DNA from: Lepidodermella squamata | Lineage: Eukaryota; Animalia; Gastrotricha | Direction: 5' to 3' | DNA length: 64,000 nt | NCBI GenBank assembly: GCA_047495785.1 | Contig: JBLDXI010000026.1 | Location: 248,001 to 312,000, forward strand | In this document: piece by piece, positions 17,695 to 50,471 of the stretch | How positions within the stretch are numbered: position 1 is the stretch's first letter | Layout: each line of letters begins with the position of its first letter | Notes under the pieces: generated by a model | Database searches by the model: none | What the model saw: only the letters and a program-made list of their open reading frames with translations | What the model was told of the DNA's origin: nothing | Position numbers and translations under genes: made by a program

Positions 17695-18121
17695 GAAGCT
17701 CAAATAACTAAAAATGACTAAAACAACGTCAAAAGTTAATTTTAAAATATAAAATCTGACTCGAAATTTTGGTACTTTTCGAAATCTGAAGCTCGAATAA
17801 AAAATGAGACTGGACTCAGGAATCGCGAACCGACCAAGCCAAGCAGTAAAAGGAAGATAGAATTTAGGTACTTTTAAATTCGAAATCAGCTAGGCTTATT
17901 ATTATCTTAAAATTCATTGATTTCGCACCGAAAAAAGGCATTTTTTAATCAAATCTATCTTAAATTTAGAGAAGCTGGAGCAAGCTGGAGCCGATGTACC
18001 TGTACGCAAAAGAAAGGCCGAGAGACTCGAAAAAAAGCATGAAAAATCACCGTTTAATTTATTGGAGTAAATATTGAACCCGAACCTTTTTTAAAACATT
18101 GAATGAAATCGATTGATAAAA

Positions 18122-21049: not shown

Positions 21050-24000
21050 ATGTCTGAAGATTTCGAAATCGTCCGCGATGAAACCATAAGTCAGAGATAT
21101 AACCTATCAACTTATGAAATTAGAGTTCAAACCGGGCAAGGTTCAGAAAATGATACCCTGACTCAATTTTCGCGGCTCCAGGAGACTTTTGATAGTATCG
21201 TATCTAGGTTAAAATCAAAGTTTCATATCGATTCGATGTGTCGAATAACGCTATTTAATTCAGAATTAGCTTATCCTATCTCGCTCGGTTATTACCGACT
21301 GGGAAGCTTGAGCGGAAATACGATTACCGCTAATGTAGAACGCGTTGCTCAATCTAAGGAGAGTTTAAAATTAGCCAAAAATTGGCGAGTGGAAGCTACT
21401 ATGGTCTTCCTCGATAAGAAGGTCTATTTAGGCGCCGGACCTGTTAAACAACGACGTGAAATTCAGAACTCGGCTCTGAAATGGCTGGCGAATCTAAGCT
21501 CGTTCATACCTGTAAATAACAGCGATGCATTATGCTTATTTCACGCTATCATTCTGGGCATCAGCCATGAAAAATATGCGTCTTACGTAGCTGACAAGAA
21601 TCGGAATTTAATTAAATATTTGGAAAATCCGCAGTTAGAGCAAGCCGGCTTAGAATTTCAATTTCTGAAAGAAGACAAGGTCCAGCTGCGAAAAAAAGCC
21701 AGACAGTTGTGCACTGAAGCTGGGTTCGACCCGGATTCTAAACAGTGCTGCTTTAGCGTTGATGATCTTCCTCAAATTATGCGTCTCTATCCTCAATATC
21801 AGGCTGTTGTGTTTTCCTTGCTAGAAGATCGGATAATTTTTGTTTGGCCTGATACGTCAGAATTCCAAGAGACCGAGCCAAAGCGGTTATATTTAATCTG
21901 GATATCTCCTAAAATACTAGCTTCTGAAGGCGCCACTATATACAATAATATAGGTCATTTCGCGGCTCTGAAAAACCTGCATCATGTTGGGCAAGGAAAG
22001 ACTTATTGCAAGTTGTGCCTAGTTCCAGTAACAAGATCGAACCATAATTGTTTATTTCGTTGCTATGCATGTTTTCAGCGTGTGAAGCCCGCTCAAAAAT
22101 TCAGTATAGGAGCAGCGAATATTATACCTAAACAACTAACTCGATGCTCAGACGATTTTTCCTTTAGTTGTTCAGAGTGCAATAGGTGTTTTTACAGCCT
22201 AAAATGCTATGAAAATCATCTGAAATTCAAAATTTGTGAAAAATTCGTCCGTTGTAAAACATGTGGTGATGTAAAGAGTCGTAGTAAAATTGCGTTACAT
22301 CACTGCCAAGGTCGAAAATGCCAGATTTGCAAGTCAGTTCTCGGACCTGATCACAAATGTTACTGGATCAGGCCCAAGCTGAAGCTCTCGCCAGTTCCAA
22401 ATCGCGTTCTCTTTTTCGATACGGAATGTTTGATAATGGATAATGGCGAGTTTTACCCGAGCACAGTGATTGCTGAATTTGCATGTGATGCATGCCGCGA
22501 TCTTGAAATTCGTCAATATCCGATAAATGGGAGTAAAATTTGCGTAAACGGGTGCTCCCAATTGTTCTTCTACGACGAGTATAACGCGTTTTCAAATTTT
22601 ATGGCTCACATCTGCCGTGAAGAATACAAGGATCTCACATGTATTTCGCATTACGGAGGTTAGGTTTTTCCTTTCATCATTTACTGGAAAAAAACTCGTG
22701 TTTTCAAGGGAAATTCGATACACTTTTCGCTTTGAGGTACGCACAAGATCACAATTTGAAGATCGAAACATGTGAGCGAGCGGGAAGAATCCTCGAGCTT
22801 AAAATCACTCGTGGTCCGCGGTATTTTTTTCACAATTTAAAGAAAAACATGGAAAATAAGAAATCGTTTTAGGTTCATTGATAGCTTCAATTATTTCCTT
22901 ACGAAACTCTCATGTCTACCTGCTGCATTCGGTATAGAGGGGATAGAAAAGCTTTCATACCCTCACAAGTTGCACAAGCGAGAAAATCTTCACAAAATTT
23001 TCAGCGAATGGCCTGGTATTGAATTTTATGATACTAGTAACATGGAATCCAGTGAAATATCAAGTCTGGAACAATTCATCAGCCATAAGCGCGAAAACAA
23101 TCAAAAGTTCGATTTCAAGTTGGAAACGTATCGATATTGCATGCAAGACACTGTAATTCTTCGGCTGGCGACGGGACGGTTTTTTAAACTAATTCAAAAT
23201 CTATCGAAATGCGAGTACGCGCCAAATGGTATTGATTGCTTCAAATATCTAACATTGTCAGCGATTTCGCACATCATTTACCGTGTATGTGAATGAAAAA
23301 ATAATGAAAAACCCCATTAATTTCTTCTTTTCAGATAAAATTCATGCCGCAAAAATCTATCAGGATAATGAATCCGCAAGGTTTAGCCCTAAGAGATGTT
23401 GCAAGTCAAGAAGCATTGCAGTGGCTTTACTATTATTCCAAAACTAATAATGTTGAGATAGAATCAGCACTGAACGGTAGTGAATGTCGACTAACCCTAA
23501 GCGATAAAACAATTCGTAAACCCGACGGGGTTGTTCGTAATCGGGCGACTGGGGAGGTTGAACGCGTCCTTGAGTATTACGGTTAGCGTTTTTTCGGAAA
23601 AATTAAGCCCAAGTTTTAAATCTGGTTTTTTCTAGGATGCGCCATTCACGGCCACCCAGCCTGCTTTCCAGAGAACCAATTTAATTTTTTGCTGCGAAAA
23701 ACGTTCGGAGAGCTGGCATATGACACTGCAAAACGCGAGGAGCAGCTGAGACAAAATAATTATAAACTGACAACGATTTATGCTTGCGAGTTCAAATCAA
23801 TGTTAGCGCGCAATCAGGAGCTAGCTAAAGCACTGGAGGCAGCTGTTTCCGTAATCCCGCCGATAAAGCCTCGATCAGCTTTGCTTGTGATAATTATTCA
23901 AAAATTACATTTTTAATCATAATTTTTTTTTTAATTGAAGGGCGGAAGGTGTGAAGTACACCGCTGTTTCTTCGAGAAAGATGCCAATACTAGCTTGTTT

Positions 24001-25512
24001 TACGTTGATATAAACTCCATGTATCCATTTGTTCTGTGGTCGAAAGACTTCCCGTGTCAAGATGTATCAATGCAAGTTTTAAGGTGGCGTTTGGATGATG
24101 CGAAATTGAGGGCAAAGTTTTTTGATACAACGGACCCAGCGTTTGGCCTGATATCTTGCAAGATAGTACCAAACGCTGCTTTGATAATTCCCTGTCTCCC
24201 ATGGAAATACGAAGATCGATTAGTATTTATCAGTTGTAGGACTTGCTACGTCGAGAAAAATTCAAAAACGAGATGCAATCATAATGATGAAGAGCGTGCT
24301 CTAACAGGTGTGTGGACTACTGAAGAGGTACGTATGGCTGTCGAGAAATTCGGGTATAGCCTTCAATCCGTTTTCGAAATATGGCACTACGAGTCCCGAG
24401 GAAATTTGAACTTTAAGGATTTTATAATATCGCTTCAAAAGCTCAAGTTGGAACATACACAAATAGCCGCTAATCTTGACGTAGAGAAATATGTGTCTGA
24501 TTGCCGAGCGAAGTATGGTATCGATTTAGACACGCAGGCTATGCTATCGCCGAATCCTGCTATGAAGCAGATATCGAAGATCCTACAGAATAGGTAGATG
24601 GCGTTGTTTTTTAGCACTGGTCTTGGTCTTATATCCCTCGTAGCTTTTACGGCAGATTTTGTCTCCGAAGCAATAATTCTACTGTGAAATATCTTGATTC
24701 GCCAGAGCAACTTATAGATCTGTTCGAAAGTCCAGGGAAAGTTGTTCACACCATACTGCCAGTTGGCCCTGATGACGAATCTCAACGAGTCCGCGTTTCA
24801 TATTCCGATGCTCCAGATCACGAACAACCCTGTCCGAGCAATTCAGAGATAATAGCCGCTTTCATAACGTCGTATGCAAGAATTTTGTTGTACGAAGAGG
24901 TTGAAGGAAGCTATTCGAAATCAATAATTTTTAAAGCTCTTTGCTTTCTAGATGGCTCGACTCGGTTCGAGGGTAGTCTATTGCGATAGTAAGCATTTTT
25001 TCAATTTCCGAGATTTTTTTCAAATTCAATTTTTTAAGCGGATTCCTTAATTTACACGCATCAAGAGGGCGAGTATAAAATTCCAGAGGGACCCTTCATG
25101 GGTGAATTCAAATCGGAATTAAGCGATGGCGAAATCATTGAATCATGGGTTTGCATCTCGCCAAAGTCATACTCATTCGTAACTAATTTCAGGTATCGAT
25201 GAAAAAATAATTTCACTGCGGATTTTTCGAGGCTTTGATATTTTCAGATCTGAGCTCAAGTTCAAAGGAATAACTCAGAGCCTCGCAGGGAAAAAATTGT
25301 CACATGAATCTTTAGTCAAGCTGTTATTTGAATCATTGAGCGAATCTGCGCATCCATCTCTGACTCTTGATCAAACCAGATTCCACCGGCGGCACGTTCC
25401 GGCTTCAGTGACTCTTGAAACGCTTGAAAAAAGAATAGCGCCACATTTGAATGATAAACGAATATTTTGCCCTACATCCTTTACTTCAATACCTTACGGG
25501 TACCGGGTATAA
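21050..25512 (+). CDS. pPolB: Protein-primed family B DNA polymerase (group 2), 10 exons, ~1331 aa: 21050-22658, 22709-22820, 22873-23284, 23335-23581, 23636-23886, 23941-24593, 24644-24899, 24952-24988, 25039-25192, 25248-25512
   Basis: vOTU (SDALC..GHF), CxxC fingers, ExoI FFDTE, ExoII HYG|GKFD, R|FIDSFN, ExoIII YCMQD, VSR-like EYYG|CAIHG, L|GGRCE, motif A DINSMYP, motif B KILQN|SFYG, motif C YCD|TDS, PKSY, KFKG, DKR..PYGY; spliced length 3996 nt is a multiple of 3. Confidence 0.95.
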
Positions 25513-25544
25513 CTCTTTCATGCATTCTTCTTCTATTAGAAATT

Positions 25545-25997
25545 ATGTCAGACAGCATTTCACCGGATCGATTGGCTCCTGAGAGTGTAGCCTCTTACGA
25601 GTTTGTAAATTCTGAAGTTACCTGTTGCATTTGCCTTGGAATCATGCTTACACCTGTACACATTTCCAACTGTCAACACGCATTCTGCGAAACCTGCATT
25701 TGTCGATGGGGCGATCGAGTTGAAGCTGGTAAAAAAGGTGGTTTGGTGGCGTATATGTACTCGAAGGCTACTTGCCCGAAATGCCGCCAATTATATACTT
25801 GCTTGGATCTCACCCCTGGGCCGGCTGTTGTAGATCGATTAGTCTCCCTTTTGCAGTTTAAATGCGTGAATGAAAAGCGCGGATGCTCAGTCAAAATGGA
25901 CTATCTCAGTCTCATGGAGCATCAAAAGAAATGCAATAAACGGAAAGTACCAAAATATACTGGAAATTTTAAATTTCTTCGTCAAAAAGCTGATTAG
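25545..25997 (+). CDS. C3HC4 RING finger + TRAF-type zinc finger protein (putative E3 ligase), 150 aa
   Basis: CCICL..PV...CQHAFCETCI..W...CPKCR followed by CVNEKRGC..LMEHQKKC. Confidence 0.88.
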   Translation: MSDSISPDRLAPESVASYEFVNSEVTCCICLGIMLTPVHISNCQHAFCETCICRWGDRVEAGKKGGLVAYMYSKATCPKCRQLYTCLDLTPGPAVVDRLVSLLQFKCVNEKRGCSVKMDYLSLMEHQKKCNKRKVPKYTGNFKFLRQKAD

Positions 25998-26103
25998 GGA
26001 TTCAGCTTCCCAATTGAATCAAGTCTGAAATCCATCTGAAATAAATCCATATGCACCTAAACAAAAATATGTTTGAATTTTAGGATCAAATTAACTAAAA
26101 AGA

Positions 26104-26441
26104 ATGAAAAGTTCGTACATTTTGGAGCTTAAACTGACGAATGGCAGTACTTTCTACACGACTTTCGATGAATCATCGACACTTGCTGACATCATAGCAC
26201 ATCTACACGCTGCTTGGCCGCCAAAATGGGGCGACAAGCTTGACCTGGATCAATTACAGCTCTACTGCAAAGATCGCGCAATCAGAAAGTCGGTGCTGCT
26301 CAAGTGTAAGTAAATTTCTACCTTTGAACCGAGCTTGATGATTTTCCAATCCTAGCATTGAGTCGCCGCGAACTACATGGCTACAAGCATCGCACTTATT
26401 ATGTCACTATTGTCTCAAAAAGCCCTCTTCCCGAGCTTTGA
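26104..26441 (+). CDS. UBL3/MUB-like ubiquitin-fold protein 1 (intron 26306-26355)
   Basis: LKLTNG..F...TLADIIAHLHAAWPPKW...LQLY; the WPxxW..LxLxY signature of UBL3. Confidence 0.7.
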
Positions 26442-26513
26442 ACTTTCTGCTAATGTATAGTAAAGAAAAATACTATATTCGAGCTTGTTTTAAACTTAGA
26501 TTTGTAACTTAAA

Positions 26514-26759
26514 ATGGAACCTCAGGCTTTTGAGGAATTTTCAGCTAATGTCGCTTGGAGAAATGGAGATCAAATTAGCTTGCGATGCCATGCGTCAATA
26601 AAAGTAGACGCTATCCTACAGCAGATATATGACGAATGGCCAGATAGTTGGGGTGAGAAGCCGCATGTGAAAGAACTCCGACTATGTTACAACGGTAGAT
26701 GCTTGCATAGGTTCTACAAACCAATAAGAAAGTATTTCCCAAGTATTTCCCAAGTGTAA
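26514..26759 (+). CDS. UBL3/MUB-like protein 2 (possible extra 3' exon to ~26860)
   Basis: IYDEWPDSWGEKPHVKELRLCYNGRCLH vs UBL3 VYDNWPMDW..ILRLIYQGRFLH. Confidence 0.75.
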   Translation: MEPQAFEEFSANVAWRNGDQISLRCHASIKVDAILQQIYDEWPDSWGEKPHVKELRLCYNGRCLHRFYKPIRKYFPSISQV

Positions 26760-26907
26760 TTGTTTTTATCCAACAGAACTCTGCAACTATCTCCGAGTGA
26801 ACGTTTTGGAGCTGACAGCTACAGCGCTTCATGTCTAATGATTTTCTGCTATGTATAAAAGATGGGTAAAAAAAGGGATCTTTTTAATTTTAGAAACATT
26901 TGAAAAA

Positions 26908-27165
26908 ATGACTAAATGGAATTTGAAAATTCGTATCGATAAGCGATTGAGTCCGAAATTAACTCTCAGAACGATTGGCGATCTTAAGGTAAATTCTCAA
27001 TTGCGAATCCCGCTAATTATAAGAATTATACTCTGGCAGGTTTTGTTTATACGCAATTGTCCATGCCAACCATGCGTGATTGTCTCTGGAACGACAAAAG
27101 CGAAGATCTTTCGTCTATCTGACATTGAGACCGCAATTTGCTTTTACAAACAGCGTGAAAATTAA
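26908..27165 (+). CDS. Small Maverick orphan protein (probable in-frame intron 26989-27039)
   Basis: ATG after a TTTTAG acceptor; 51-nt GTAAAT...GGCAG intron; CPCQPC motif. Confidence 0.4.
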   Translation: MTKWNLKIRIDKRLSPKLTLRTIGDLKVNSQLRIPLIIRIILWQVLFIRNCPCQPCVIVSGTTKAKIFRLSDIETAICFYKQREN

Positions 27166-27222
27166 GTCGTGAAAAAAGTGATTCAGGAATGGTTTTTTTA
27201 TCTTAGGTTATAAAAATAATTG

Positions 27223-27573
27223 ATGGAAGCATCTCAAGATTGCGATTGGAGCAGCTGCGAATCCCTTGATTCTTGCAATTCTGTTGATTCTTCAACTCAA
27301 ACTTTGCCTTATGAGCCGAACTCTTCAGCTCTTCTCCTCAGGTGGGTTACTGGCGCTAAGGTCATCATAAAATGTCGAAAGTCGACTCAGATGCGCGAAA
27401 TTTTGAATAAGCTGTGGGAAAAATGGCCCGATGGTTGGACAAGCCGGCCTTCGGACCCCAGAAAATTGAAAATTTACTACGGCCGGCTCAACATTCAAGA
27501 CTTGACTAACGTCTACGAATTGAGCAAGGATCTTGACAAACGTCATTTGGTATTCAACGTACGCTGCGAGTAA
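27223..27573 (+). CDS. UBL3/MUB-like protein 3
   Basis: LLLRWVTGAKVIIKC...LWEKWPDGW...LKIYYGR...VFNVR. Confidence 0.72.
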   Translation: MEASQDCDWSSCESLDSCNSVDSSTQTLPYEPNSSALLLRWVTGAKVIIKCRKSTQMREILNKLWEKWPDGWTSRPSDPRKLKIYYGRLNIQDLTNVYELSKDLDKRHLVFNVRCE

Positions 27574-27672
27574 TAGTTCATCACAATTCAAACAGTTGAA
27601 ATCTGTATTAACCTGAATAATTGACGCAGTAAAATTAAATGGTTATGATATTCTTTTTTAGGCGAATTAATA

Positions 27673-28023
27673 ATGATATACTCGGCTGCGATTGAATCCC
27701 CTTCGATGAAACCTTCAATTCCAGTAATTAACCTCGTTCAGGATGACGTAGCTATCTTACTGAAGTGGGAGAATGGCAACAAAGTAATCATGCGTTGTCG
27801 ACCATGGCTATCATGCGACTCCGTGTTAGCAGCGCTGGGGGCTGACTGGCCAAAAAATTGGGATAAAATTGGACCCACTGACAGATTGCATTTGCACTAC
27901 AATAAACTTTGCCTTCCCCCTTTTGGTTATAAAGTCGGAGATTTTCTGAAAGATAGCAGACATCGCTTTGTAACGCTACATGTAAAATCATTTGAGCCCA
28001 AGATCAAGCGCATTTGTCCTTAG
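27673..28023 (+). CDS. UBL3/MUB-like protein 4
   Basis: ILLKWENGNKVIMRC...ADWPKNW...LHLHYN...VTLHVK. Confidence 0.72.
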   Translation: MIYSAAIESPSMKPSIPVINLVQDDVAILLKWENGNKVIMRCRPWLSCDSVLAALGADWPKNWDKIGPTDRLHLHYNKLCLPPFGYKVGDFLKDSRHRFVTLHVKSFEPKIKRICP

Positions 28024-28073
28024 TAAAGTGTTTAATTAACTCTGATTTTTCTAGTGCAGTTAACTAAAATCGC

Positions 28074-28415
28074 ATGGAAATAGCAAACGATATCTCTCAA
28101 ACCCTAAGCAAGACGGAAGACTCGACAATTCCAGTAATTGACATAGTTCGGAACGATCTGACTGTCATTCTTAAGTGGGTTACTGGAGATAAAGTAATCA
28201 TGCACTGTGAAGAGTTGGATTGTCCGTATGACATTATTCGCAAGTTAATGGCGACCTGGCCAAAAAGATGGAAATTCGATAAATCGGCTGAACCTCATAC
28301 ATTATACTTATGCTACGGCGGTCTTAAGCTGCCAGGGTGGCACAGGATGAGGTTTTTTTTACCTGCTAATGATTCCAGCCGACGATATGTAACACTTGAT
28401 GTCAAATATATGTAA
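28074..28415 (+). CDS. UBL3/MUB-like protein 5
   Basis: ILKWVTGDKVIMHC...ATWPKRW...LYLCYGG...VTLDVK; close paralog of protein 4 (shared IPVI motif). Confidence 0.72.
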   Translation: MEIANDISQTLSKTEDSTIPVIDIVRNDLTVILKWVTGDKVIMHCEELDCPYDIIRKLMATWPKRWKFDKSAEPHTLYLCYGGLKLPGWHRMRFFLPANDSSRRYVTLDVKYM

Positions 28416-28522: not shown

Positions 28523-29439
28523 ATGATAGCTGACTTCTACAATTCTGGATTGCCCCCGAATTTCGCGTGGAAAATAGTGAAATCATTGAAGGTTTGCTGA
28601 CAAGTAGTCTGGACCTAAAACGCATTTTTTGTATTGTAGCCGTTCGACAACTTGCGACCAAAATCTGTTCAGCGAGCATCAGGATTCAGGCGGTTGAAAG
28701 TGATGTGCATTTCCGACACGCACGACAGCGATTTTGTTTCAAAGGTGTCGAAAGCTCAAACATCGGCTCAAGCTGATATTTTGGTTCACGCGGGTGACAT
28801 TACGACTTTCGGAAGTTCAGCAGAACTACGTCGATTTGATCGTCTGTTATCAAGCGTCAAGCCAATGTTCCGAGAAGTAGTTGTTATCGCTGGAAATCAC
28901 GATCGATGTTTGCAAAGCGGCGAATATGAGCTGAAAAATTGCATCTACTTGCAAGATGAGGCGATCAGAATCAGCGGTCTTCTGTTTTACGGCACGCCGT
29001 GGTAAGTTTCTTGAATCGTGTTTCTTGATTCAAGTTTCTTTCGCGAAGGACACCGTGGACTGACAGTCGACATTCGGCTTTCACGCGTGCGAGAGGTCGA
29101 GAAATTAGCGCGAAATGGGAGATGATTCCCAGCGATACCGACATATTAGTTACTCATAGTCCCATGTTGGGTGTTCTGGATCAAACATCGAGTGGTGAGC
29201 GGATCGGCTGCCTTTCGCTCGCTGATCAAATTTTAACTCGCATTAACCCAAAGCTTCACATTTTTGGGCACGCTCATTTCAGTAATCATGTAACAAAAGA
29301 AAAATTGAATTCAACTTTTTCTTTTTATTAAGGTCGCGGAGAATTTGAAACTGATAATACATTGTTTGTGAATGCAAGCCTGTGTGACGACGAGAACAAG
29401 TTACAGTTCAACCCGATATCTGTGGAGTTGCTCTACTAA
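28523..29439 (+). CDS. MPPED1/2 (239FB)-like calcineurin-fold metallophosphoesterase, 4 exons (introns 28592-28639, 29002-29048, 29282-29332)
   Basis: ISDTH, HAGDIT, AGNHD, YGTPW, W..IP..TDILVTHSP, FGHAH, FVNAS. Confidence 0.88.
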
Positions 29440-30704: not shown

Positions 30705-31448
30705 TTATTTCGGTACATAAATTACACCAGGGAAAGCGCCCACCCCAGTTCTATAGCGCATAAACTCCGGACAATCAGGACTGAGGTCGATAAGTAAGTA
30801 ACGATGTCCGCCTTTGCTTGTTTCCATTTCGAAACTCTCCACTACGAACCGCCAGCGCAGCGGTTCCAATTGCAGGGCGAGATAGCGGAACGATGTGAGA
30901 TCTGCACGATGCCGAAAAATGAATAAATATTTAGCATTCAGCGTCATTTCTTTGGACATTTTTCCTTTGCAGAATATTGCTTGCTGAGTAAAAAATACAG
31001 ATAACTTCAAATGATGAGAGTATCGATAAAATAATTGAAGAATTTTCGGATCGTTTCTTCCTGTATCATACAAGTCATCTATCACTAACAATGTATAAGT
31101 ATCATCTCCACTGCTTGATTGGAATTCTTCAAAGTTTAGTTGCTCTAGACCTTTGCGAAACTCAACAGTAAGACCACGGCTTTTTTCTACTTCATCCTTT
31201 ATTTGCTGATGCATCCCGGTCTCAACCCCGTAAAACCATAACACTCGATGCGGCGCTGGTGATATGGATTCCGGGTCGTTAAGAATTCGTCGAATAAGCC
31301 ATGTTTTGCCTAATATACATAGGATGAAATGAGATAATATTTATGAATCGCACAACTAACCTGCGCCGCTAGGACCTATAACGAGCGAGCAGAAAGGGGC
31401 TTGCAAGCTAAGCGATACATCTATTTCTGATGGCAAATCGCCAGACAT
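30705..31448 (-). CDS. ATP: A32/FtsK-like DNA packaging ATPase, 2 exons (intron 31310-31360), 230 aa
   Basis: Walker A GPSGAG|KT is split by the intron; Walker B LLVIDD; YSHHLKLSVFFTQQ; YLLID. Confidence 0.92.
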
Positions 31449-31996
31449 GACTGGTGACCGCTACAGGTACCGAAATGACGGGACATTTTCTCAGATTTGC
31501 TAACTTTAAATATTCGATTCACCTGATCAACTATGAAATTATCCGTATTTTTATCAGGAAGCATTTGCGCAATCTTATCCATAGATGCTCCCCTCGCGAA
31601 CCAGTGAAGCGTTAAATATGCGTAGTAGCCACAAACCGCCGTTGAATCGCTCTGATATTTATGCTTGTTATAAATGTAATTATTTTTCGAGTTGATGTTC
31701 GTTAAAAATGCTTCTATAGCCTTGTTATAGAAGTTCCCGCGCCGACCATAGCTATCAAAGAATAAAGCCGGCTCGTTTGTTTGTGGGACATAAATTGACA
31801 GCCAATGACTTCCCGGCTGACCAGCGGCGTCTGTATTTACAATTAGAGCCATGGGACGCTCGCTCATCCCCTGATATCGTGATAGATAATCCCATGGTAT
31901 AGTCTTTTTAACTGGAATTTTATTGAGATTTCTATCACAGCCAAGTAGACAGTCCAACTGGAGGGTATTTAGTTGACCTCCGTTCATGCTATTCAC
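31421..31996 (-). CDS. PRO: Adenain-like (C5) maturation cysteine protease
   Basis: IVNTD...GSHW, FFDSYG, YQ.....VCGYY (H-D-Q-C). Confidence 0.93.
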   Translation of the reverse strand: MNSMNGGQLNTLQLDCLLGCDRNLNKIPVKKTIPWDYLSRYQGMSERPMALIVNTDAAGQPGSHWLSIYVPQTNEPALFFDSYGRRGNFYNKAIEAFLTNINSKNNYIYNKHKYQSDSTAVCGYYAYLTLHWFARGASMDKIAQMLPDKNTDNFIVDQVNRIFKVSKSEKMSRHFGTCSGHQSCLAICHQK

Positions 31997-33282
31997 GTAA
32001 AGTCGACCAGGACGTTTCGTGCAAAATTCAGCTCGATAACTTGATCCGTCTCAAAGTAACAGAGAAGTATCAGGTTATCGGCTAATGCTTTTTTAAATAA
32101 TAAATCAATAGAAAGCACGCCACTTTTAACCAGACTGTATGCACTACGACTTGAGTCGGGTGAGAGATCGAATCCTATAAAGGAAAAGCCGTCCTTGCTG
32201 TATTCTGATAGCTTTATACCATTTGTTTTAGTCGAGTAAGGAAACAGCGTCTCCCTAAGAGCACTCATAGCCCGAGCCGATGTATTTTCGCCCTCTCCAA
32301 ATTCGAGCGGGCTGTTTGGGACATGCTCGCTATCTATTGTGACAGACACGCGCTGAACGCCAGCGTTTTTAAAGTTGTAAGGACTGGTGAAGATGTCGCC
32401 TTTGAAATCACTATCGCTAACGAAAGACATCACCAGTCGTCTGGGTATTTTCCCTAGTATAACGTGCCCAAGGTTGTAGTTAAGAGATCCCTTTTGCAAA
32501 TTCAAGACTTTAATGAACGATCTGTTCACACCATACTTGGCCGTGGTTTTTGTTAGTGTTCGATTCAGCGCCAACGTAAATTGCGGAGATACGCGAACGC
32601 GACGCAATTTGAGCTTAGCATCAGTAACTGTTAGTGTATAGTCCATCTTGTCCCCGGCAGGTTTCATCAGAGCAAACGCCTCAGGTGCGCGTATGAAAGT
32701 CAACTTGAAGGGCGTAGCCGGAATCAGAAATTTCGGCTGAGAGAATAGCTCTAAATGTGGCTTGCCTATAAGAACCATCTCGCCTTGCTTTGCCCAAGCA
32801 AGTCTGGCGGTATGACCCTTGCCAGCAGGATCGCTGACTTTACCAGCTTCGTCTGAATAATAGCCTTGCAATGCCAAGTAGCTATCCTTAGCTGTCGGAT
32901 CACAACTCAGTAAAGTTGAAATATAAGCCTTATAATTATATGTCGGAGCCGGTTCGCTGATTTGCGTATTATTTATGCTCATATCTATTTGACTGAACAT
33001 ACTATGCAACAGAAGGTTAACCGGCGAGCAAGTAAGGTCAGCTAAAGTCTTTGACGCGTCGCCATTCACTATTTTACATGTTATTTCCACGTATGAACGG
33101 CTCAAATCTGTCCAATCATTGCTTGGAGGGATGTCAAAATCAATGCGTGACTGATTGGCGATCGCGGAAACTGGTCCATATTCTGTAATGTAATTGCTCT
33201 CTATCTCAACTTGAGTAGGGTTCAACGAAAAGACATTCAGCTCAGCGCGAATTGCGTTTTCAGAAGAGGGGTGGACGTACAT
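31993..33282 (-). CDS. PY: Double jelly-roll major capsid protein
   Basis: ELNVF..PTQ, DLSRSY, PVNLLLHSMFSQID, YNYKAYI, SPYNF, GFDLSPD; 429 aa. Confidence 0.92.
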   Translation of the reverse strand: MYVHPSSENAIRAELNVFSLNPTQVEIESNYITEYGPVSAIANQSRIDFDIPPSNDWTDLSRSYVEITCKIVNGDASKTLADLTCSPVNLLLHSMFSQIDMSINNTQISEPAPTYNYKAYISTLLSCDPTAKDSYLALQGYYSDEAGKVSDPAGKGHTARLAWAKQGEMVLIGKPHLELFSQPKFLIPATPFKLTFIRAPEAFALMKPAGDKMDYTLTVTDAKLKLRRVRVSPQFTLALNRTLTKTTAKYGVNRSFIKVLNLQKGSLNYNLGHVILGKIPRRLVMSFVSDSDFKGDIFTSPYNFKNAGVQRVSVTIDSEHVPNSPLEFGEGENTSARAMSALRETLFPYSTKTNGIKLSEYSKDGFSFIGFDLSPDSSRSAYSLVKSGVLSIDLLFKKALADNLILLCYFETDQVIELNFARNVLVDFT

Positions 33283-33897: not shown

Positions 33898-35588
33898 TCA
33901 TAAATAAATAAATAAATAAATAGCAATAGGTCTAATCTGAACTAATATAACAGCCTTACCACTAACGAATTTTACAGGTAATCCAGAGTCTTTATATATT
34001 TGAATCTCAATAACAGACAAAACGCGACGTTTAATTGGGACAAATATGGGTTTTTCAAAAGTTTTCGAAAAAAAGCTTCCTTTGTCTATCGTTTTTTCCG
34101 TCGGAATTACTCGCAACAGGGGTGTGCGGGTATTTCCGACATACACGTCATCAATTACGTCAGCGTACAAGAATAAGAAGGGCATTCCGTAATCAAGCTG
34201 GGGTGGAAATCTTGCGATCGCTTGATCGTCAACATGATGGATTGTGTAGAAATATTCTATTATCGATACAGGTTGCTCTTCGTGACTTGGCGGGTTTTGG
34301 TCATTTTGCGGACCAGATGGCTGAATTTCGACCGATGGGCTAGGAGCACTTGATGACCGCTCTTTCACCGCTGTGCCGCTCTGATCTGACTGATCCATCG
34401 ATGACTCGTCTGGCTCACTTTCATGCTGGTCTAGATCAACATTATCGTCAGGATTCTGATGTGTTGTCTCGTCAGGTAACAAATCTTTCTTTGCTGGATC
34501 CGTCGCTTTGTCTGACTCATTCTTCACAACTTCATCGTCACCAACCGCAGGGTCAGCCGGTTGATTATCATCTGGCTTCGCGGTCACTTGTTCATCTGGC
34601 TCAGCAGTCACTTGTTCATCTGGCTTCGCAGTCACTTGGTCTTCCGTTGACTCGCCAGGCTTCTTATTATCACCCGATGGAATTGGCGGAAGCTTTCGCT
34701 TTCGTTGCGGTGGGTTACTGTCATTCGATACCTTTTTATCATTCGGATCTTGCCTATTCTCAGCTTCCGTCTCATCCTCTTTATCGACCTTTTTCACATC
34801 ATCGTCAGCTGGGGGTGGCAACTCTGCATCTTCATCGGATCTTCGAGATCTAACTTTACCGGGTACTCTTTCCGGTAAAAATAGCCCACCTTTGAATCTA
34901 ACTTTGTTGAATTCATTCACATCTGCTGATATGGAACGGTATGGTATTCTCTGCCTACTTCCAGTAACGACATAGCCAAGCATTAGCCTGAACGCTGCGC
35001 CCATTTTAACCACGTCATTTGAAAACCCTTCGTCCTTTCTATCGAATTTGTGGAATGCAACAAAGGCACCAGGGTACCCTAAAACTTGCGCGAGTTCCTT
35101 AGGTATAAATATTCCCCATTTACCAATGGCGACCTTCAGTGACACGCGATTTGTGATTTGCACGTACTCAAATGTAATATTCTTCGTTATGCTCTGAACT
35201 TCCTTCTCCATGTGAGTAAGCAATTCTTCTATGTTGGAGTAATATACTCCTCCGACCTGGCATTCATGCAGATTTTTCGTGTCAAATGGATCCGGAGCTT
35301 TGTATGCATCAGGTTGTTCCAACCATTCGCAATCAAAAACGTAAAAATTTGTCGGTTCTATCGACTCCCAAGCTGATGGACCGTTAAATTCCACGAGACC
35401 CATTTCCCATTGACCTAAATTTTTTTTTAGTGCGGGCTATAAGTGACTTTCATTTTTATCATACCCACTGTGCCAAGATCAATATCGTTGGCCAACTTGA
35501 CGCGAAATGACGACGCTGTGTTGTCAGGAAACAGATCGTTGGATGCGTTCGATGGTAAGTAAAGTAAAAATTCTTGCCGCGCGCTCAT
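33898..35588 (-). CDS. PX: Minor capsid (penton) protein, 2 exons (intron 35415-35464), with a large acidic insertion
   Basis: N-terminal FLLYLPSNAS..FPDNT..FRVKL..G|QWEMGL; C-terminal LYADVI..VGN..PLLRVIP..IEIQI..G.PVKF. Confidence 0.88.
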
Positions 35589-35818: not shown

Positions 35819-35899
35819 TTATCGGCGATGCACGCGTTTGTTACCGCGTTTGCGTGCTGTGGATTTTCGTTTCCGGATAGCTCGTCTAGGACCAGGCAT
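35819..35899 (-). CDS. 26-aa protamine-like peptide MPGPRRAIRKRKSTARKRGNKRVHRR (not in the ORF track)
   Basis: ATG overlaps the integrase TAA; its TAA abuts the next ATG; 13 of 26 residues are Arg/Lys. Confidence 0.55.
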   Translation of the reverse strand: MPGPRRAIRKRKSTARKRGNKRVHRR

Positions 35900-37164
35900 T
35901 ACTTTCCCCTCTTTTTGGCCGATTTTCGCTCCTTTATATATTCATTTTGGACGTCTTTTATTTGGTCAATTGGCTCCCATGAACTTTGAGATTTGGGAAA
36001 CCCAACCCAGCTAACTAAAACCCGCGTTGTTCCATCCTTGAATTTTCGCTTCTCTTTACTCACTTCATCTATCAGGTATTCATCCGGTAATTTGACTTTT
36101 TGAAGCTCATAGTGATAAAAAACGCCTGCAACAGGTTCGGTGTAGTCGCCGTTTTCTGTGCTCCATCCATTCAACTTGTATGTATGCGGCCCGTACCTGT
36201 CTGGCTTGATGGCTTTCGCTATTTTGAAATACTCATCCGTATAAGTAAAATGACGAGCGCGGGCAAAAACGCCTCTCTCTGCTGAGATCCGTACTACATC
36301 GTCTAATTTAAAAGCTGATGGCTGCCTGCGACCTTCTTCTATGTCCGCTCCGAAAACGTTATTGTAAGCTATATACTGCTTAGGGCTGTCCTCGAAAATA
36401 TCGAGATTAAGCTCCTTGTCACTCCCGATTTTACGCCCACTCTCCTTGTCATTGTACAACTCTGCGGGTGTGAACTTGGTAGATGAGTGACGGGAGTCAT
36501 TGTAAACTCTAACGATGTTCTGCAAATCATCGACGAATCTACCGTCGTTTCGCGCCATCGCAAGCTTAGCCAGTCGCATGCGCAGTAATTTGTTGAATGA
36601 CTCTATTTGAGGAACTTTCTTTTCCGAATTCGTAGCGAAAAAATGAATGGATTCTGATTTCAAATATCGCTCAACGTGTTGGTTGAAAAATTCTGAACCT
36701 CTATCGAACACAACAGCGTACGGTTTTTGCTTAGCGTCCTTCATAACTATTTTCAGAGCTCTAAGTGTTTCGGGACCGGTTTTATTTCGCATCGTTTGCA
36801 CCCAGGCGAAACGACTGTATGTGTCCTTGGCTGTAAGTATATATTGCACGTTGTCGTTCTCGCCCTTTACATTTCTCACGTCCACCAAGTCCATAGCGAA
36901 CAAACTTCTTCGACTAAAGCATGCCACCTTCCGGGTTACTCGATTCCTCGTTCCGACCTGCTTATAAACGCTCCACGTACGTTGATTTCCCAACCAGTTC
37001 CTTACTTGCCGCATTGTGATCTTTCGACCTGGATACTTGACCCTGTAGGCTTTGTAAAGAGCTGATACGCTACCGAGACCGCCTGGTTCACCCGGGTCGA
37101 AGTAAATTTTTCGCAAATCTCGGTCATCTTGATCTAACGTTGGCATTTTCGTTGTATATTCCAA
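35899..37164 (-). CDS. INT: Retroviral-like (rve) integrase with C-terminal chromodomain; probable ATG at 37146
   Basis: IYFDP..PGG, DDE triad MDLVD / FDRGSEF / IESFNK, YNDSRHSS, VRIS, chromodomain VLVSWVGFP...SWEP. Confidence 0.95.
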   Translation of the reverse strand: MEYTTKMPTLDQDDRDLRKIYFDPGEPGGLGSVSALYKAYRVKYPGRKITMRQVRNWLGNQRTWSVYKQVGTRNRVTRKVACFSRRSLFAMDLVDVRNVKGENDNVQYILTAKDTYSRFAWVQTMRNKTGPETLRALKIVMKDAKQKPYAVVFDRGSEFFNQHVERYLKSESIHFFATNSEKKVPQIESFNKLLRMRLAKLAMARNDGRFVDDLQNIVRVYNDSRHSSTKFTPAELYNDKESGRKIGSDKELNLDIFEDSPKQYIAYNNVFGADIEEGRRQPSAFKLDDVVRISAERGVFARARHFTYTDEYFKIAKAIKPDRYGPHTYKLNGWSTENGDYTEPVAGVFYHYELQKVKLPDEYLIDEVSKEKRKFKDGTTRVLVSWVGFPKSQSSWEPIDQIKDVQNEYIKERKSAKKRGK

Positions 37165-37201
37165 CTCTAGCGTTTTGCGTTTTAAATAGTGACATTCTGT
37201 A

Positions 37202-38116
37202 ATGGAAAAGTATTCTTACATCCGAGCTATTGGCTCAGGTTCTTTCGGCACTGTCAGTTTACAGCGCAACATTCCCCTAAATCGAATGTTTGCAGTGAAA
37301 ATGATAGATACTACGATCCCCTACAAACTCGAGTCTGCCACTCGGGAAATTGAGTGCCTGCAAATACTAAAATCTGCGCCAAACGTTATTAGGTAGGCGA
37401 CTGATATTGTTTTGACCACCGAATTACTTAAATCGTATAGACTGCATGAGGTTGTGTTCACCACTCGACGTGCATTTCTTGTGCTGGAATGTCACCTCAT
37501 GGATATGAAATCCTTGATTGGAGTGATAACTCGACCCTGGCCACTTGTTCTACTAACCCGATGGTTAAACCAGCTTTTGACTGCTCTTGCATATATTCAC
37601 GCTTGTGGAATAATTCATCGCGACATTTGCCCGCAGGTTTGTCAGTTTTTGTCTTTCAGCCAAGTTTTCAACACCTAATTACAGAATGTACTCCTGCAAA
37701 CCAGCTGGGTCGATGTATCCCTCGCTGATTTCGGCATTTCGCGAACACTGCCCGACGACACCTGCCCAGATATGACCCCGGAAGTTACGGCGTTTCACTA
37801 CCGAGCGATCGAAATAGTATTCCCTAAACCTCGATATACGAATAAAATTGATGTTTGGTCCCTAGCTGCTACAACTATTGAACTTGTTACACTTGCACCG
37901 TTTTTCTCCGCTCAATCTACTGTCAACATATTCAATAACATAAAATCTAAAACTTCCAGTCTTGATGATTTCTTTAGGTGTTTGAACACATTCGTTCACT
38001 GCGATTTCACCGAGTACAGGCAATTGCTTGAGCTACTGTTCTCAATGCTCAATAACAATCCTGAATCTCGTCCATCAGCAGATCAATCTCTAATTCTGCT
38101 CAATGCAATCTTATGA
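37202..38116 (+). CDS. CDK-like (CMGC) Ser/Thr kinase, 3 exons (introns 37393-37440, 37637-37684), 272 aa
   Basis: IGSGSFG, FAVK, SATREIECL (PSTAIRE-like), HRDICPQ|N, LADFG, TPEVT..YRAIE, DVWS, RPSA. Confidence 0.9.
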
Positions 38117-38750
38117 TATCAACATTTCGGTTTCCAACATTGTCGCAACCTTCAACGTTGGAACTCCCATAGATCTACATCTCCTTGCTCAGCGTGGGGT
38201 TAATACGTTCTTCGATAGCAGGCAAATACCCGTATCAGTAAAGATCCGATTCCCCAGTCACATTTCAGCAATGGTTTACTCATCAGGCCATGTTATAGTC
38301 ATTGGAGGAAAAGGGTCGAAGGACACTGCGGATTTTGAATGCAAAGCCTTGGTCATCTTACACAAGCTACGGAATTGGATGTCAATTCCTTCTCTAATCT
38401 TCGATCGGTTTAATATTAGAAACATTGTCATAACAGGACAGCTACCTTTTCGATTTTTGCAAATTTCAACACTGTATTCGGAATTTTCATCGGTGAAAAT
38501 GCCAGGATTCAAAATTGTTTACATACCTGAAATGTTCTGCGCTATGAGACTTACCATCAATAATGTGAAAATTAGCTTTTTCCCAAGCTCTCATAAGTTT
38601 AATGTTGTCGGCGTTAAAACATTAGATCATGGGCTGAATATTGTTCGTACTTTTGTCCAGCTCTGCATTGATATTCACGAAAAAGAGTTGACTGATTTGG
38701 GGTTAACCGAGCTAGATTTACTGTTCCTGAATTCCTGTTTCAATAATTAA
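38103..38750 (+). CDS. TATA-binding-protein family protein (divergent TBP/TRF2-like)
   Basis: Two TBP half-repeats: SNIVATF...IDL...AMVYSSGHVIVIG and FNIRNIV...YIPEMF.AM...SFF.S.KFNVVG. Confidence 0.8.
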   Translation: MQSYDINISVSNIVATFNVGTPIDLHLLAQRGVNTFFDSRQIPVSVKIRFPSHISAMVYSSGHVIVIGGKGSKDTADFECKALVILHKLRNWMSIPSLIFDRFNIRNIVITGQLPFRFLQISTLYSEFSSVKMPGFKIVYIPEMFCAMRLTINNVKISFFPSSHKFNVVGVKTLDHGLNIVRTFVQLCIDIHEKELTDLGLTELDLLFLNSCFNN

Positions 38751-38784
38751 AAATTTATTATTCTTAGACAAGATTTATTGAGTC

Positions 38785-39396
38785 ATGGCATTGTCCGCAC
38801 CAGGTGTTGAGCTGACTGTTTTCAATATAAATCCGCAACTGAACCTCGGAATCGATAATATGCCCAATGGACACTATCTTCGCAATCAGCAGGTGGAAAA
38901 ATTACGAGCTGTGAAATCTCACTTTCTAAGGACAATGCACGGCTCTGTTGTTGTTGACATTGTATCTGGAAAATCCGGCGTTTGCGTCCTCCTACCTTAC
39001 GTGCTCAAATCTAGCAGAGTTTTGGTGATTACGCCTTCTCAAGACATTACACGACAACTAGCATGGGATTTTACCGGAAATTTGAAACCTGAAACAGCCT
39101 TCCTGTTTCGCGCAGGCGTTTACACCTTCTGGAAGACATGGCCGACCATCATACCTAAATGTTGCATTTTCGATCACTCTTACAATTTTAATCAGGATTT
39201 CAACCCACCACCTCTCTTCATCACCAACAGCTTTGATTTGAACCTTATCCCTCTAAATCTTTTCGATTTAGTAACCGTTGTTAACGCACAAGATTTTCTA
39301 CTTTCATCTTTGAAGCTCATCGCGGAACGTTTTAAAAAGGTCAAAGTAGTGTTCCTTGCAGACCGTAAGATTGCCGATTTCAACGTTATTATGTAA
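38785..39396 (+). CDS. Degenerate SF2/ResIII-like helicase N-terminal domain
   Basis: LRNQQ (Q motif), SGKSG (altered Walker A), RVLVITP..ITRQL; FDLVTVVNAQ where DExH is expected; no second RecA domain. Confidence 0.6.
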   Translation: MALSAPGVELTVFNINPQLNLGIDNMPNGHYLRNQQVEKLRAVKSHFLRTMHGSVVVDIVSGKSGVCVLLPYVLKSSRVLVITPSQDITRQLAWDFTGNLKPETAFLFRAGVYTFWKTWPTIIPKCCIFDHSYNFNQDFNPPPLFITNSFDLNLIPLNLFDLVTVVNAQDFLLSSLKLIAERFKKVKVVFLADRKIADFNVIM

Positions 39397-39594
39397 CACT
39401 AGACTTGGGTGTCAGGTACTGGTTTCAGGTTCTTTTCTATTAATCCATGTTGTTAGCCCCATTAATGTCCATGTTCGATGATCCATTGATCAATAAAAAT
39501 GAGATTCCGTAACGTGTTTTTTTGCTCGAGCGTCAAATAGGTGACTACCAGACATTCTAGATTTTTTGTTCTGAGATAGATTTCATAAAGTACC

Positions 39595-39681
39595 ATAAAG
39601 TACCAAAAATTTGAGTCCTAATTTATTATTTAAAATTAACTTTTGACGTTGTTTCTTTTTAAGCTCCTCACACTTCCTCCT
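39595..39681 (-). repeat. Right terminal inverted repeat of the Maverick
   Basis: ...TTTTAAGCTCCTCACACTTCCTCCT, reverse complement of the left TIR. Confidence 0.93.
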
Positions 39682-40224
39682 TCTGACACTTCAGACTGAG
39701 TTTAGTTTCTGTCTGGACACTTCATAAGCGTGACGCAAAACGTTTAAAGAATGGCGGGATAACCAAATTTGATGCGAAATAAGGTTGATTTTGTTGTCCC
39801 GGCTCATTTAATTAGTAAGTTGATTGACAGTACGGGGGATTGAATGGGGAGATCAACTTTGACCTAATGTGCTGACATTTTAAAATAGCTGTAATGCTGT
39901 TGAATGCTTGTGCTGCTCTTAAGTGCAAGGAGGAAAATCGATCTATCTTGAATAACTTGAATAAGCTCCGGATGCAAATGATTGCCTCAGAATATAATAA
40001 TTTGAAAGCTGTTATTCCATTATTTTATTATTCAACATTCAAAACAAGCCTTGTCAGCTTTATTCGCAAATATTTATCGGGAAGAAAAAATGCCAAATCA
40101 TGATTTTTCGTTAATAAAAGGTTCATAGAAGTCGGCCAGAATCGGGGCAAGGTTATGTTGGCAACTTTCGGAATAATTACCGCGGTTGACTAGGCCTGGA
40201 TTCAAAGCTTCTGAGTACTTATAA

Positions 40225-40939
40225 CAGTGTTCCGATTTTTGCCCACTGGACCACGCTCAGTGGCAGACATAAAAAAATATTCCTTATTAAAACCGTTGAG
40301 AGAAGGGATAGGGGTATAGATAATCGGCGTACACTTTTAAGACCTTATGAAGCCGGCCAGGTTAAGGGATTTCTCGAGGTAAAAATTCGCAATTTTTCTG
40401 CTTTTATATCGACAGTTTTGCTCGCTGCGCTCGCTGATAACCATTTTCCTTTCATTTTCCATTCTCTCAAGCCAATAGTTCCCATACTCATTAGACCCAA
40501 TTTTCAATGATCCGTCCGGAAGGAAGTTAAAAAGAGTCCTGAAATTCCTTCCTTCTTAGAGAAAAACCAGCTTCGAGATGCTCATTTTTCGCATTTTCAG
40601 AGGCAAATCTTCAGAGGCAAATCACCGAAAAATCGGCTCGCTTCGCTCGCATTCTAGTCCTGTTCTTTTCTTTCCCTGATTTTATAAAGGCAATATAGAC
40701 GAACTTACTCCCCTTGAACAGCAGTGAAGACGTCAGGTTTTAAGCTTTAGGAAATAGCATCTGTGATTTTTCAATCGCGTGTATAACTAGTTTCGCGAAT
40801 TCTGCGAACTTCGAACCAATGTACAGTAGCTTAACGAAAAAACGAAAACTCGAAAAAAATTCCAAATTGGCGTACACTTTTTCGCAATTTTTTTCCAGTG
40901 GCAGACACTGTCAAGTCACGAAAAAAAATCGGAGGACTG
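40225..40939. mobile_element. Non-autonomous hAT-like DNA transposon
   Basis: Imperfect TIR CAGTGTTCCGATTTTT / AAAAATCGGAGGACTG; perfect 8-bp TSD ACTTATAA (40217-40224, 40940-40947). Confidence 0.8.
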
Positions 40940-41031
40940 ACTTATAATATATGAACTGAATAGGTTATCTTCGAGGTAATCAAGCTTCCATTCGATATCG
41001 GCAAGGGCGAAGTAAAAAAAATGGCAGCATG

Positions 41032-42247: not shown

Positions 42248-42815
42248 CAGTGAAACCCCGATTCTCCGTCACCCGATTTCCCGTCAATTCGAATTTCCCG
42301 TCAGGTTTTCCGCGGAACCAGCTGTCGTAATGCAAAACATGCTATAGAACCAGATATTCTCCGTCATTGATTCTCCGTCAATTTCGGATTTCCCGTCAGG
42401 TTTTTTGGGGCCCCGCGCGATTATTTGGCGGGTAATTTCACTTGATTTTCCGTCAAAACCCTGCCGTTACAAAACGTTCTACAAAATGGTTTTCACGCTA
42501 ATTTGTGGTGGCATTTTGTTGTTCGATTATCAATAAATACGAAAAAACTTATTCCAATCATAGCGCTCTGATAAATATTTCACTGATCGCTCGAATTCGG
42601 CTTAGAAAGACAAAATGACTTTTTGATCGGTGTGGAATTATACAAAACAAATTAGATATTCGGATTCAGCGGGAAATGTTTGGATAGAATGCCAATTTGC
42701 GCGCGTTTATCTTTCAAAATGAGAAAGAAATGCAGCAGCAGCAAAGTTTAACTGTGTGATTGCGCGCGCTTAACAACAGCGCGTGTGCTCTCAAATCTGC
42801 GCTCTGCGCGCGCAT

Positions 42816-42866
<51 letters not shown>

Positions 42867-43118
42867 ACCTACACAATCATGCGCGCACAAGCGAAATTAA
42901 CATTTATCCCCCAATTTTTTCCCCATTTCAAATCGTCTTCGCGCGCAAAGTTGCATAGTGGCTCAACTTTTCACGCTGAATCCGAATATCTAATTTGTTT
43001 TCTAAAATTCATGCAAAATCCTCATAGATACAAGCAATATGAGCGAAAGGGGGCTCATTTTGATTTCCCGTCAGATTTTCCGCGGAACCGTAAATGACGG
43101 AGAATCGGGGTTTCACTG
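42248..43118. mobile_element. Non-autonomous pogo/Tigger-like element (TA TSD) containing a (CA)n microsatellite
   Basis: TIR CAGTGAAACCCCGATTCTCCGTCA / TGACGGAGAATCGGGGTTTCACTG flanked by TA; subterminal TTYCCGTCA repeats. Confidence 0.88.
42818..42864. repeat. (CA)n microsatellite
   Basis: Seen directly. Confidence 0.95.

Positions 43119-45634: not shown

Positions 45635-50471
<4,837 letters not shown>

Follow-up and report, generated by a model that had tools for sequence, protein, structure and literature searches.

The DNA under study is a stretch of 64,000 nucleotides (nt) from the gastrotrich Lepidodermella squamata (GenBank assembly GCA_047495785.1, contig JBLDXI010000026.1, positions 248,001 to 312,000 of the forward strand), referred to below as the window. 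It holds a Maverick/Polinton element of about 22 kb in animal nuclear DNA, in which the long open reading frames (ORFs) are intact and a protein-primed family B polymerase (pPolB) and a retroviral-type integrase are both encoded inside terminal inverted repeats (TIRs). Three genes, all on the plus strand, lie between the integrase start and the right TIR: a kinase gene, a gene for a protein resembling the TATA-binding protein (TBP) and a helicase-like frame (ORF3). The block begins with the kinase ATG at 37202 and ends with the ORF3 stop codon at 39396; it is composed as follows (E, expectation value; HMM, hidden Markov model; aa, amino acids; SF2, superfamily 2).

37165-37201: spacer of 37 nt between the divergent integrase ORF start and the kinase ATG, with an AT-rich TTTAAATA / TATTTAAA stretch
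37202-37392, plus strand: kinase exon 1, with the GSGSFG glycine loop, the AVK lysine and the SATRE helix; Pkinase HMM positions 1-61, E 4.1e-7, 30.1 bits
37393-37440, plus strand: predicted kinase intron 1, 48 nt, GTAGGC..GTATAG, with an in-frame TAG
37441-37636, plus strand: kinase exon 2, ending in HRDICPQ; Pkinase HMM positions 67-126, 28.2 bits
37637-37684, plus strand: predicted kinase intron 2, 48 nt, GTTTGT..TTACAG, with an in-frame stop
37685-38116, plus strand: kinase exon 3, with the N of HRDICPQN, DFG, the T-loop, the C-lobe and the stop; Pkinase HMM positions 128-257, E 1.2e-16, 61.3 bits
38103-38750, plus strand: TBP-like gene, 215 aa, with two TBP repeats and an acidic C-terminal tail (residues 189-215)
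38746-38751, plus strand: ATTAAA, candidate poly(A) signal overlapping the TBP stop
38785-39396, plus strand: ORF3, 203 aa, probably the first RecA-like domain of an SF2 helicase standing alone, its motifs degenerate
39492-39497, plus strand: AATAAA, candidate poly(A) signal, 96 nt beyond the stop of ORF3

The integrase gene is divergent from the kinase gene. Kinase and TBP-like gene overlap by 14 nt (38103-38116), a gap of 34 nt separates the TBP-like gene from ORF3, and the ORF3 stop lies 200 nt ahead of the right TIR, which begins at 39597. An earlier note on this DNA had described three co-oriented, overlapping or abutting genes inside the right TIR, and its coordinates proved exact. In 500 shuffles of 37001-39700 the longest open frame had a mean of 101 and a maximum of 222 codons; a pair of neighbouring ORFs on one strand, 215 and 203 codons long and one of them strongly matched to a family, exceeds what chance would give. 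The positions of ATTAAA and AATAAA hint at two 3' ends. A single spliced fusion of the kinase and the TBP-like gene was considered and rejected, since neither of the two AG sites examined upstream of 38103 joins in the frame of the TBP.

The ORF at 38103 matched the TBP family PF00352 in two stretches with an E-value of 3.5e-14 and 52.8 bits (cut-off 22.9), and NCBIfam models of archaeal TBP aligned over residues 6-186, which bears out the earlier claim that both TBP repeats are present. When the PDB was searched by sequence with E up to 1, 36 of 37 matches were TBPs or TBP fusions. Among 1.84 billion representatives, 181 matches were obtained at E up to 1e-3 (best 1.1e-10), and identity to any representative did not exceed about 33%. 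All 12 representative matches that were scanned carry PF00352. The top named relatives were scattered: an archaeal TBP, an insect TRF-like protein, a euglenid TBPL1 and a mite TBP-like protein.

An AlphaFold (AF2) model of the protein reached a predicted local distance difference test score (pLDDT) of 93.5 and a predicted template modelling score (pTM) of 0.85, in a modelled order S1-H1-S2-S3-S4-S5-H2 that occurs twice and corresponds to the TBP saddle topology; the input alignment consisted of 57 hits, all of them TBPs, and the model is therefore not independent of the sequence match. A single-sequence fold model had a pLDDT of 37.6. In a Foldseek comparison with the PDB every listed row (ranks 1-44) was a TBP, with E-values from 9e-13 to 6e-8 and target-normalised template modelling (TM) scores of 0.73-0.85 for stand-alone TBP chains. 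The top matches in BFVD were TBP-like proteins of large DNA viruses (E 1.6e-11 to 1.3e-7, identity 9-20%). The nearest ESM-Atlas clusters comprise TBP-domain proteins of about 200 aa with mostly viral recorded members (75% and 59%), a lead only. Sequence matches and model together establish that the predicted product has the TBP fold with two repeats, and its branch is very long. This TBP fold, singled out beforehand as one of the points on which the earlier note could fail, was thus upheld.

DNA-contact positions were assigned by the yeast TBP numbering on the alignment of TBP hits. The protein keeps 22 of 40 well-conserved TBP columns, including N12, N107, Y140-x-P142-E143-x-F145 and F160, and the second-stirrup motif Y-E-P-E-x-F reads Y-I-P-E-M-F. 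N12 and N107, which we take from the yeast TBP roles to be the minor-groove Asn pair, are both kept, as are F145 and F160, presumably the DNA-kinking Phe residues of repeat 2. The core has a net charge of +9; the tail (residues 189-215) contains 6 acidic residues and 1 basic residue and was modelled as a helix. In a quick tree the end branch of the protein measured 2.87 changes per column. Its weak sisters were two environmental proteins (Shimodaira-Hasegawa-like approximate likelihood-ratio test, SH-aLRT, 84; 28% identity with one of them), and it was not grouped with the sequences that read E-P-E-L-H at the second stirrup, one of which is from an acanthocephalan. With 1 of 55 inner branches well supported, the tree speaks weakly and appears to leave the origin of the protein without firm placement.

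No RNA-polymerase domain was found among the element ORFs scanned against Pfam, so that the element would depend on the RNA polymerase II (Pol II) of its host. We tentatively read the block as Maverick cargo and the TBP-like protein as an element-specific promoter factor that would bring host Pol II to the element genes, an interpretation that we hold to be possible rather than probable. The protein would bind DNA, given its basic core and the retention of both groove Asn and both repeat-2 Phe, and by analogy with the TBP-like proteins of large DNA viruses and the viral TBP (vTBP) of herpesviruses it would nucleate Pol II initiation at element promoters. The kinase might condition the host nucleus via the cell cycle or the C-terminal domain (CTD) of Pol II, and ORF3 would probably be non-enzymatic. 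The TBP-like protein may cooperate with the kinase or with ORF3; the three need not form one machine.

The kinase introns were predicted from the sequence and from HMM continuity. The joined frame of 819 nt has 272 open codons and a single terminal stop, and its three exons tile the Pkinase HMM from 1 to 257 as a complete PF00069 kinase domain, which supports the predicted splice model. GSGSFG, AVK, the helix-C Glu in SATRE (residues 45-49), HRD, Asn, DFG and DVWS are present, and HRDICPQN (residues 123-130) lies across the exon 2/3 joint. The two motifs named in the earlier note, HRDICPQN and SATRE, are hence both found in the joined frame, and the PF00069 check that it proposed gave matches across all exons. 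Judged by eye, SATRE loosely resembles PSTAIRE. The comparison with solved structures was made exon by exon and not with the joined protein: exon 1 best matched MARK3 (E 8.6e-5), exon 2 best matched CDK2 (E 4.7e-6), with the catalytic loop H-R-D-x-x-P-Q-N common to both, and exon 3 best matched ERK2, CDK12/13 and Kin28 with nearly equal E-values of 2-6e-8. The C-lobe matches CMGC kinases, and the T-loop Thr is followed by a CDK/MAPK-like stretch. These likenesses allow a fair assignment as a eukaryotic protein kinase of CMGC/CDK-like cast; a tie to CDK7/9, which the earlier note had named, did not emerge from the exon-wise best matches.

A kinase of this kind could itself be the working part of the block. 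As a CDK2-like enzyme it would push the host cell into S phase and thereby supply nucleotides and replication factors to the protein-primed polymerase, and the TBP-like and helicase-like genes would be unrelated cargo. The best match of exon 2 with its shared loop, the CMGC-like C-lobe and the T-loop would suit such a role, and the kinase is the sole gene of the cassette with diverged, mostly synonymous paralogues in the sequencing run described below. Moreover, S phase is commonly forced by small DNA viruses (Rb-binding motifs, PMC8502044). However, the catalytic-loop Lys is a Cys, the best match of the N-lobe is MARK3 and not a CDK, and no cyclin gene was seen among the element ORFs scanned against Pfam. 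We consider the cell-cycle role as the main function of the block rather unlikely.

For ORF3, three pointers agreed with each other, each of them weak: ResIII (PF04851; E 0.0018, 18.6 bits, under the cut-off of 22.5), PHROG 16 'DNA helicase' (E 0.031) and ESM-Atlas features, by which 30 of 30 hits fell into ResIII/DEAD clusters at 0.93-0.94, with fewer shared features than is typical for true cluster members. No PDB match was obtained, nor a homologue at near or longer lengths. Neither a Helicase_C match nor a second RecA domain was found in ORF3, and only 200 nt are left before the TIR. Inspection by eye revealed an L-R-x-Q-Q start, a motif Ia-like stretch, traces of motif III immediately ahead of the stop, and a Walker A G-K-S in which the upstream (first) Gly is Val; N-A-Q-D stands at the expected place of DExH (motif II). 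The fold assignment, a lone and catalytically dead first RecA domain of an SF2 helicase, is on these likenesses quite probable, and the product is probably non-enzymatic. Of the earlier description as a helicase-like domain that has lost DExH, the loss agrees with our reading of N-A-Q-D by eye, and the likeness to helicases remained weak, with PF04851 below its cut-off. Nothing ties ORF3 to XPB, the SF2 helicase that the earlier note had named.

The earlier note had combined the three genes into a transcription-initiation toolkit. In such a Pol II-hijack kit a private TBP would read the element promoters, the CDK-like kinase would phosphorylate the CTD or cell-cycle targets, and the dead helicase would act as an adaptor. 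Beyond the TBP this idea found no footing: a CDK7/9 tie and an XPB link did not appear, no promoter box shared by the element genes was found, and a PC4 domain had no Pfam match in 33 small element ORFs or in the larger ORFs scanned. We regard the kit as improbable.

Further copies were sought among the contigs of one sequencing run (X1) containing the stretch. A single contig of 2116 nt spans 37520-39635 with zero differences. ORF3 had no second copy in these contigs at an identity of at least 80%, and homologue searches with the TBP-like gene and ORF3 revealed no close homologues. The kinase alone among the cassette genes has diverged paralogues in the run, with mostly synonymous differences. 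Two contigs of about 100 nt match exon 2, and all 4 listed differences are synonymous. A contig of 3752 nt aligns with the beginning of exon 3 (9 differences over 65 nt) and once more from 37943 onwards. In 30 loose letters of this contig, read by eye, the residue was kept in 8 of 9 codons, 5 of them via third-position changes. Together with the HMM tiling, the mostly synonymous paralogue differences suggest that the kinase is under constraint. Additional contigs accumulate on the integrase and on the ATPase-like and capsid-like parts, and therefore diverged Mavericks probably exist in that genome. Contig depth was 160-191 on the element and 49-90 on the flanks, which look split into two haplotypes; depth is thus ambiguous as a measure of copy number.

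In viral contigs no related locus was obtained with the TBP-like gene, the capsid-like ORF, the integrase, P0014 or P0050 as queries, nor with a three-sequence alignment or an exact 35-nt DNA word; two of the viral-contig searches reported 1 and 2 relative-encoding stretches and returned no locus. Searches of metagenome contigs with the TBP-like gene or the capsid-like ORF likewise gave no related locus.

The three genes might be passengers in a cargo bay, of no benefit to the element and with the kinase (Cys for Lys) and the helicase (one dead domain) already inactivated. The block sits where nematode Mavericks have their exchangeable cargo region (bioRxiv 10.1101/2022.07.12.499685), the collections searched contained no relatives of ORF3 and none of the TBP-like gene above about 33% identity, catalytic motifs are degenerate in both the kinase and ORF3, and no promoter motif is common to the element genes. 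With TIRs that are 98% alike, the insertion may also be so young that open frames are no proof of selection in this host. On the other side, all three frames and both pairs of splice sites are intact despite the distance from known relatives, and intact frames in such distant proteins argue for long purifying selection before the insertion. The kinase paralogues differ mostly by synonymous changes, and a recent capture from the host should resemble host TBP, whereas the top named matches are scattered at 33% identity or less. We infer that the TBP-like ORF was maintained for a long time, because it is open even though no relative exceeds about 33% identity; neutral decay would have closed it. 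Mere passengers are an unlikely explanation, albeit one with an appreciable chance of being right.

Several observations weigh against the TBP-like protein as an element-specific promoter factor. The gene was placed in the cargo bay and not among the core genes of the element. No second copy of it was found in the run X1 contigs at an identity of at least 80%, and no copy in the viral or metagenome contig collections searched, so that conservation within a Maverick lineage is not established. The fold model drew on an alignment that held only TBP hits, hence its lack of independence from the sequence match. His164 stands where all 57 other aligned sequences have Gly. The repeat-1 positions that we assume to hold DNA-kinking Phe read I42 and Y59, by which 2 of the 4 kinking Phe are changed, and both of what we take to be the minor-groove Thr positions are hydrophobic (Ile and Val). 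As for the neighbouring genes, the Cys in the kinase loop replaces the sole missing member of the catalytic set, and ORF3 lacks Walker B as well as a second RecA domain.

AT-rich, TATA-like stretches occur within about 50 nt of many element ATGs, and no 8-mer was shared beyond chance upstream of 17 element gene starts: the best one preceded 8 of 17 starts (null mean 6.8), a count that 21.5% of the null sets reached. The motif CTATTTAAA, which stands ahead of the capsid-like ORF and of the integrase, showed no enrichment (34 matches versus 34.7 expected). The ATG of the TBP-like gene lies inside the kinase ORF, and no promoter was evident for this gene. A promoter role of the 37-nt spacer with its TTTAAATA / TATTTAAA stretch can at most be inferred, because the motif is not enriched in the window.

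The same properties could be those of a decoy, which would soak up partners of host TBP or occupy host TATA boxes and so damp host transcription or silencing, the tail masking or modulating the DNA-binding face. Alteration of 18 of the 40 conserved TBP columns, the extra acidic tail (189-215; 6 acidic residues, 1 basic, helix in the model) and the lack of a matching promoter box in the element are in keeping with such a function. The analyses made gave no support for partner binding, though, and an integrated element would presumably gain little from shutting off its host; we therefore think a decoy very unlikely. The element-specific promoter factor accordingly stays our tentative preference.

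The remaining features of the element are listed below.

17603-17692: left TIR, 90 nt, pairing with 39597-39686 (88 of 90 nt identical)
22841-23293 and 23935-24597: pPolB, split over several exons; PF03175 matches
25467-28415 (window coordinates), plus strand: RING-finger ORF (PF00097), followed by the five ORFs of the next line
26095-26310, 26508-26756, 27220-27573, 27673-28023 and 28074-28415, plus strand: five small ubiquitin-like ORFs with weak Rad60-SLD/UBX matches
28640-29328, plus strand: calcineurin-like metallophosphoesterase in two ORF pieces; PF00149, E 2.5e-9 and 0.016
30705-31244, 31993-33282 and 33898-35403: large ORFs with no Pfam or PHROG match
35899-37164, minus strand: integrase with chromodomain; PF00665 rve E 6.8e-8, PF00385 Chromo E 5.5e-7
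39597-39686: right TIR, 90 nt, pairing with 17603-17692

No 6-bp target-site duplication was found flanking the TIRs. A subterminal 63-nt unit of the left TIR recurs at 17721-17783, and the subterminal part of this TIR (17635-17783) forms a tandem duplication with a spacing of 86 nt. At the right TIR (39597-39654) one run X1 contig contains a joint that 'goes back 58'; the number of subterminal repeats may differ among copies or alleles. The last three ubiquitin-like ORFs are clear paralogues spaced by 410-423 nt. An adenovirus-type protease was indicated by a weak match under the cut-off (Peptidase_C5, E 8e-4). We take the three large ORFs by position and size alone as those of the ATPase and the capsid proteins. 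In the third of them (33898-35403, minus strand), three 24-nt tandem units at 34568-34644 encode a repeated acidic peptide; they sit in the long low-complexity middle of this putative minor capsid ORF, and a separate ORF of 53 aa (35427-35588) resembles an upstream exon of it. The sole run X1 contig over 23001-33808 differs from the window at 23292 (A>T) and 31348 (T>A), and the window's own letters were absent there, which reflects either assembly errors or another copy or individual.

Outside the element, the window contains tandem glutamate-receptor-like ORFs as well as trypsin, CAP-domain and ankyrin genes. At 2346-14438 (plus strand) lie three tandem ORFs, poor in introns and 807-894 aa long, with an ANF_receptor ligand-binding domain, and at 46389-47135 (minus strand) a Lig_chan ORF; jointly they make up a local cluster of ionotropic glutamate-receptor-like genes. 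An ankyrin-repeat ORF (16703-17653, plus strand) runs into the left TIR, and for this reason an ankyrin gene may have been the site of the element's insertion. To the right of the element, 40200-40950 is a high-copy repeat with a summed contig depth in run X1 of up to about 3,500, compared with 160-190 on the element. A pair of imperfect inverted repeats of 97 nt is located at 42635-42731 and 42914-43010.

Nematode Mavericks carry a cargo region of 2-5 kb with intron-bearing genes between the TIR and the integrase; Widen et al. (bioRxiv 10.1101/2022.07.12.499685) regard this cargo as acquired and as exchanged among species. The block described here has in common with that cargo (wasp proteases, krma kinases) the position between TIR and integrase, the introns and the presence of a kinase. 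The KRMA kinases are HipA/CtkA-like by structure, whereas the present kinase is a canonical Pfam Pkinase. Kinase cargo of Mavericks is thus already known from another family, and a CDK-like kinase as Polinton cargo was absent from the searchable literature. A further likeness is that modular ubiquitin-like domains occur on cargo proteins of the nematode elements and that the present element has a row of ubiquitin-like ORFs elsewhere. On the side of the differences, a raised GC content was not seen here (0.39-0.44). The available text of Widen et al. contains zero occurrences of TBP or helicase, whereas a TBP-like and a helicase-like gene are part of the cargo here; kinase, TBP and helicase are none of them mentioned in a paper on nematode Polintons (PMC10748475).

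Virus-borne TBPs are already known. The TBP-like proteins of large DNA viruses (African swine fever virus B263R, PMC5825884; Heterosigma akashiwo virus, Terrestrivirus, ChoanoV1) have in common with the present protein a TBP fold of two repeats that is very divergent. Unlike the element, as far as its Pfam-scanned ORFs go, these viruses bring an RNA polymerase of their own. A functional model is offered by the beta- and gammaherpesviruses, which have no polymerase of their own and use a private TBP-like factor to direct Pol II to some viral promoters (ORF24 of KSHV, the herpesvirus associated with Kaposi's sarcoma, and UL87 of human cytomegalovirus; PMC7498053, PMC8360532); their vTBP binds late promoters and recruits Pol II (PMC7498053). 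KSHV ORF24 is a large multi-domain protein whose N-terminal domain binds the Pol II CTD and whose target is a TATT box. The gastrotrich protein, in contrast, is a bare protein of 215 aa with a TBP core and a short acidic tail, for which no target box was found, and it is compared with vTBP by function only.

Cellular TBP and TRF/TBPL1 belong to the same PF00352 family and have a two-repeat saddle and a core of comparable size, but the present protein is at most about 33% identical to any representative and sits on the 2.87 end branch. Among Polinton-class elements, a TBP homologue on a midsize linear double-stranded DNA element is indicated, as here, for MELD viruses with adintovirus-like PolB by 'TBP' gene labels (Starrett et al., PMC8502044, bioRxiv 10.1101/697771). 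In the available parts of these texts the label occurs in figure legends only, for non-animal datasets and without analysis, so the likeness is one of label and not of sequence. A figure label is all that the searchable literature yielded on a TBP in this class, and the earlier note is fair in not counting TBP among the standard Polinton genes.

Very little is known about the way in which Mavericks/Polintons activate their genes in the nucleus of the host. They are also candidate vectors for horizontal gene transfer among animals. TBP-like factors are established in giant viruses and, as mimics, in herpesviruses. The value of the present observation is tempered by the fact that conservation and expression are not established. 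The location of the TBP-like gene beside a CDK-like kinase suggests a connection with the cell cycle or with the CTD of Pol II. A viral pre-initiation kit of three genes, if true, would be far smaller than the six-protein kit of herpesviruses. As a bare TBP core on a 22-kb element without its own RNA polymerase, the protein would be among the smallest systems for promoter recognition by a private TBP.

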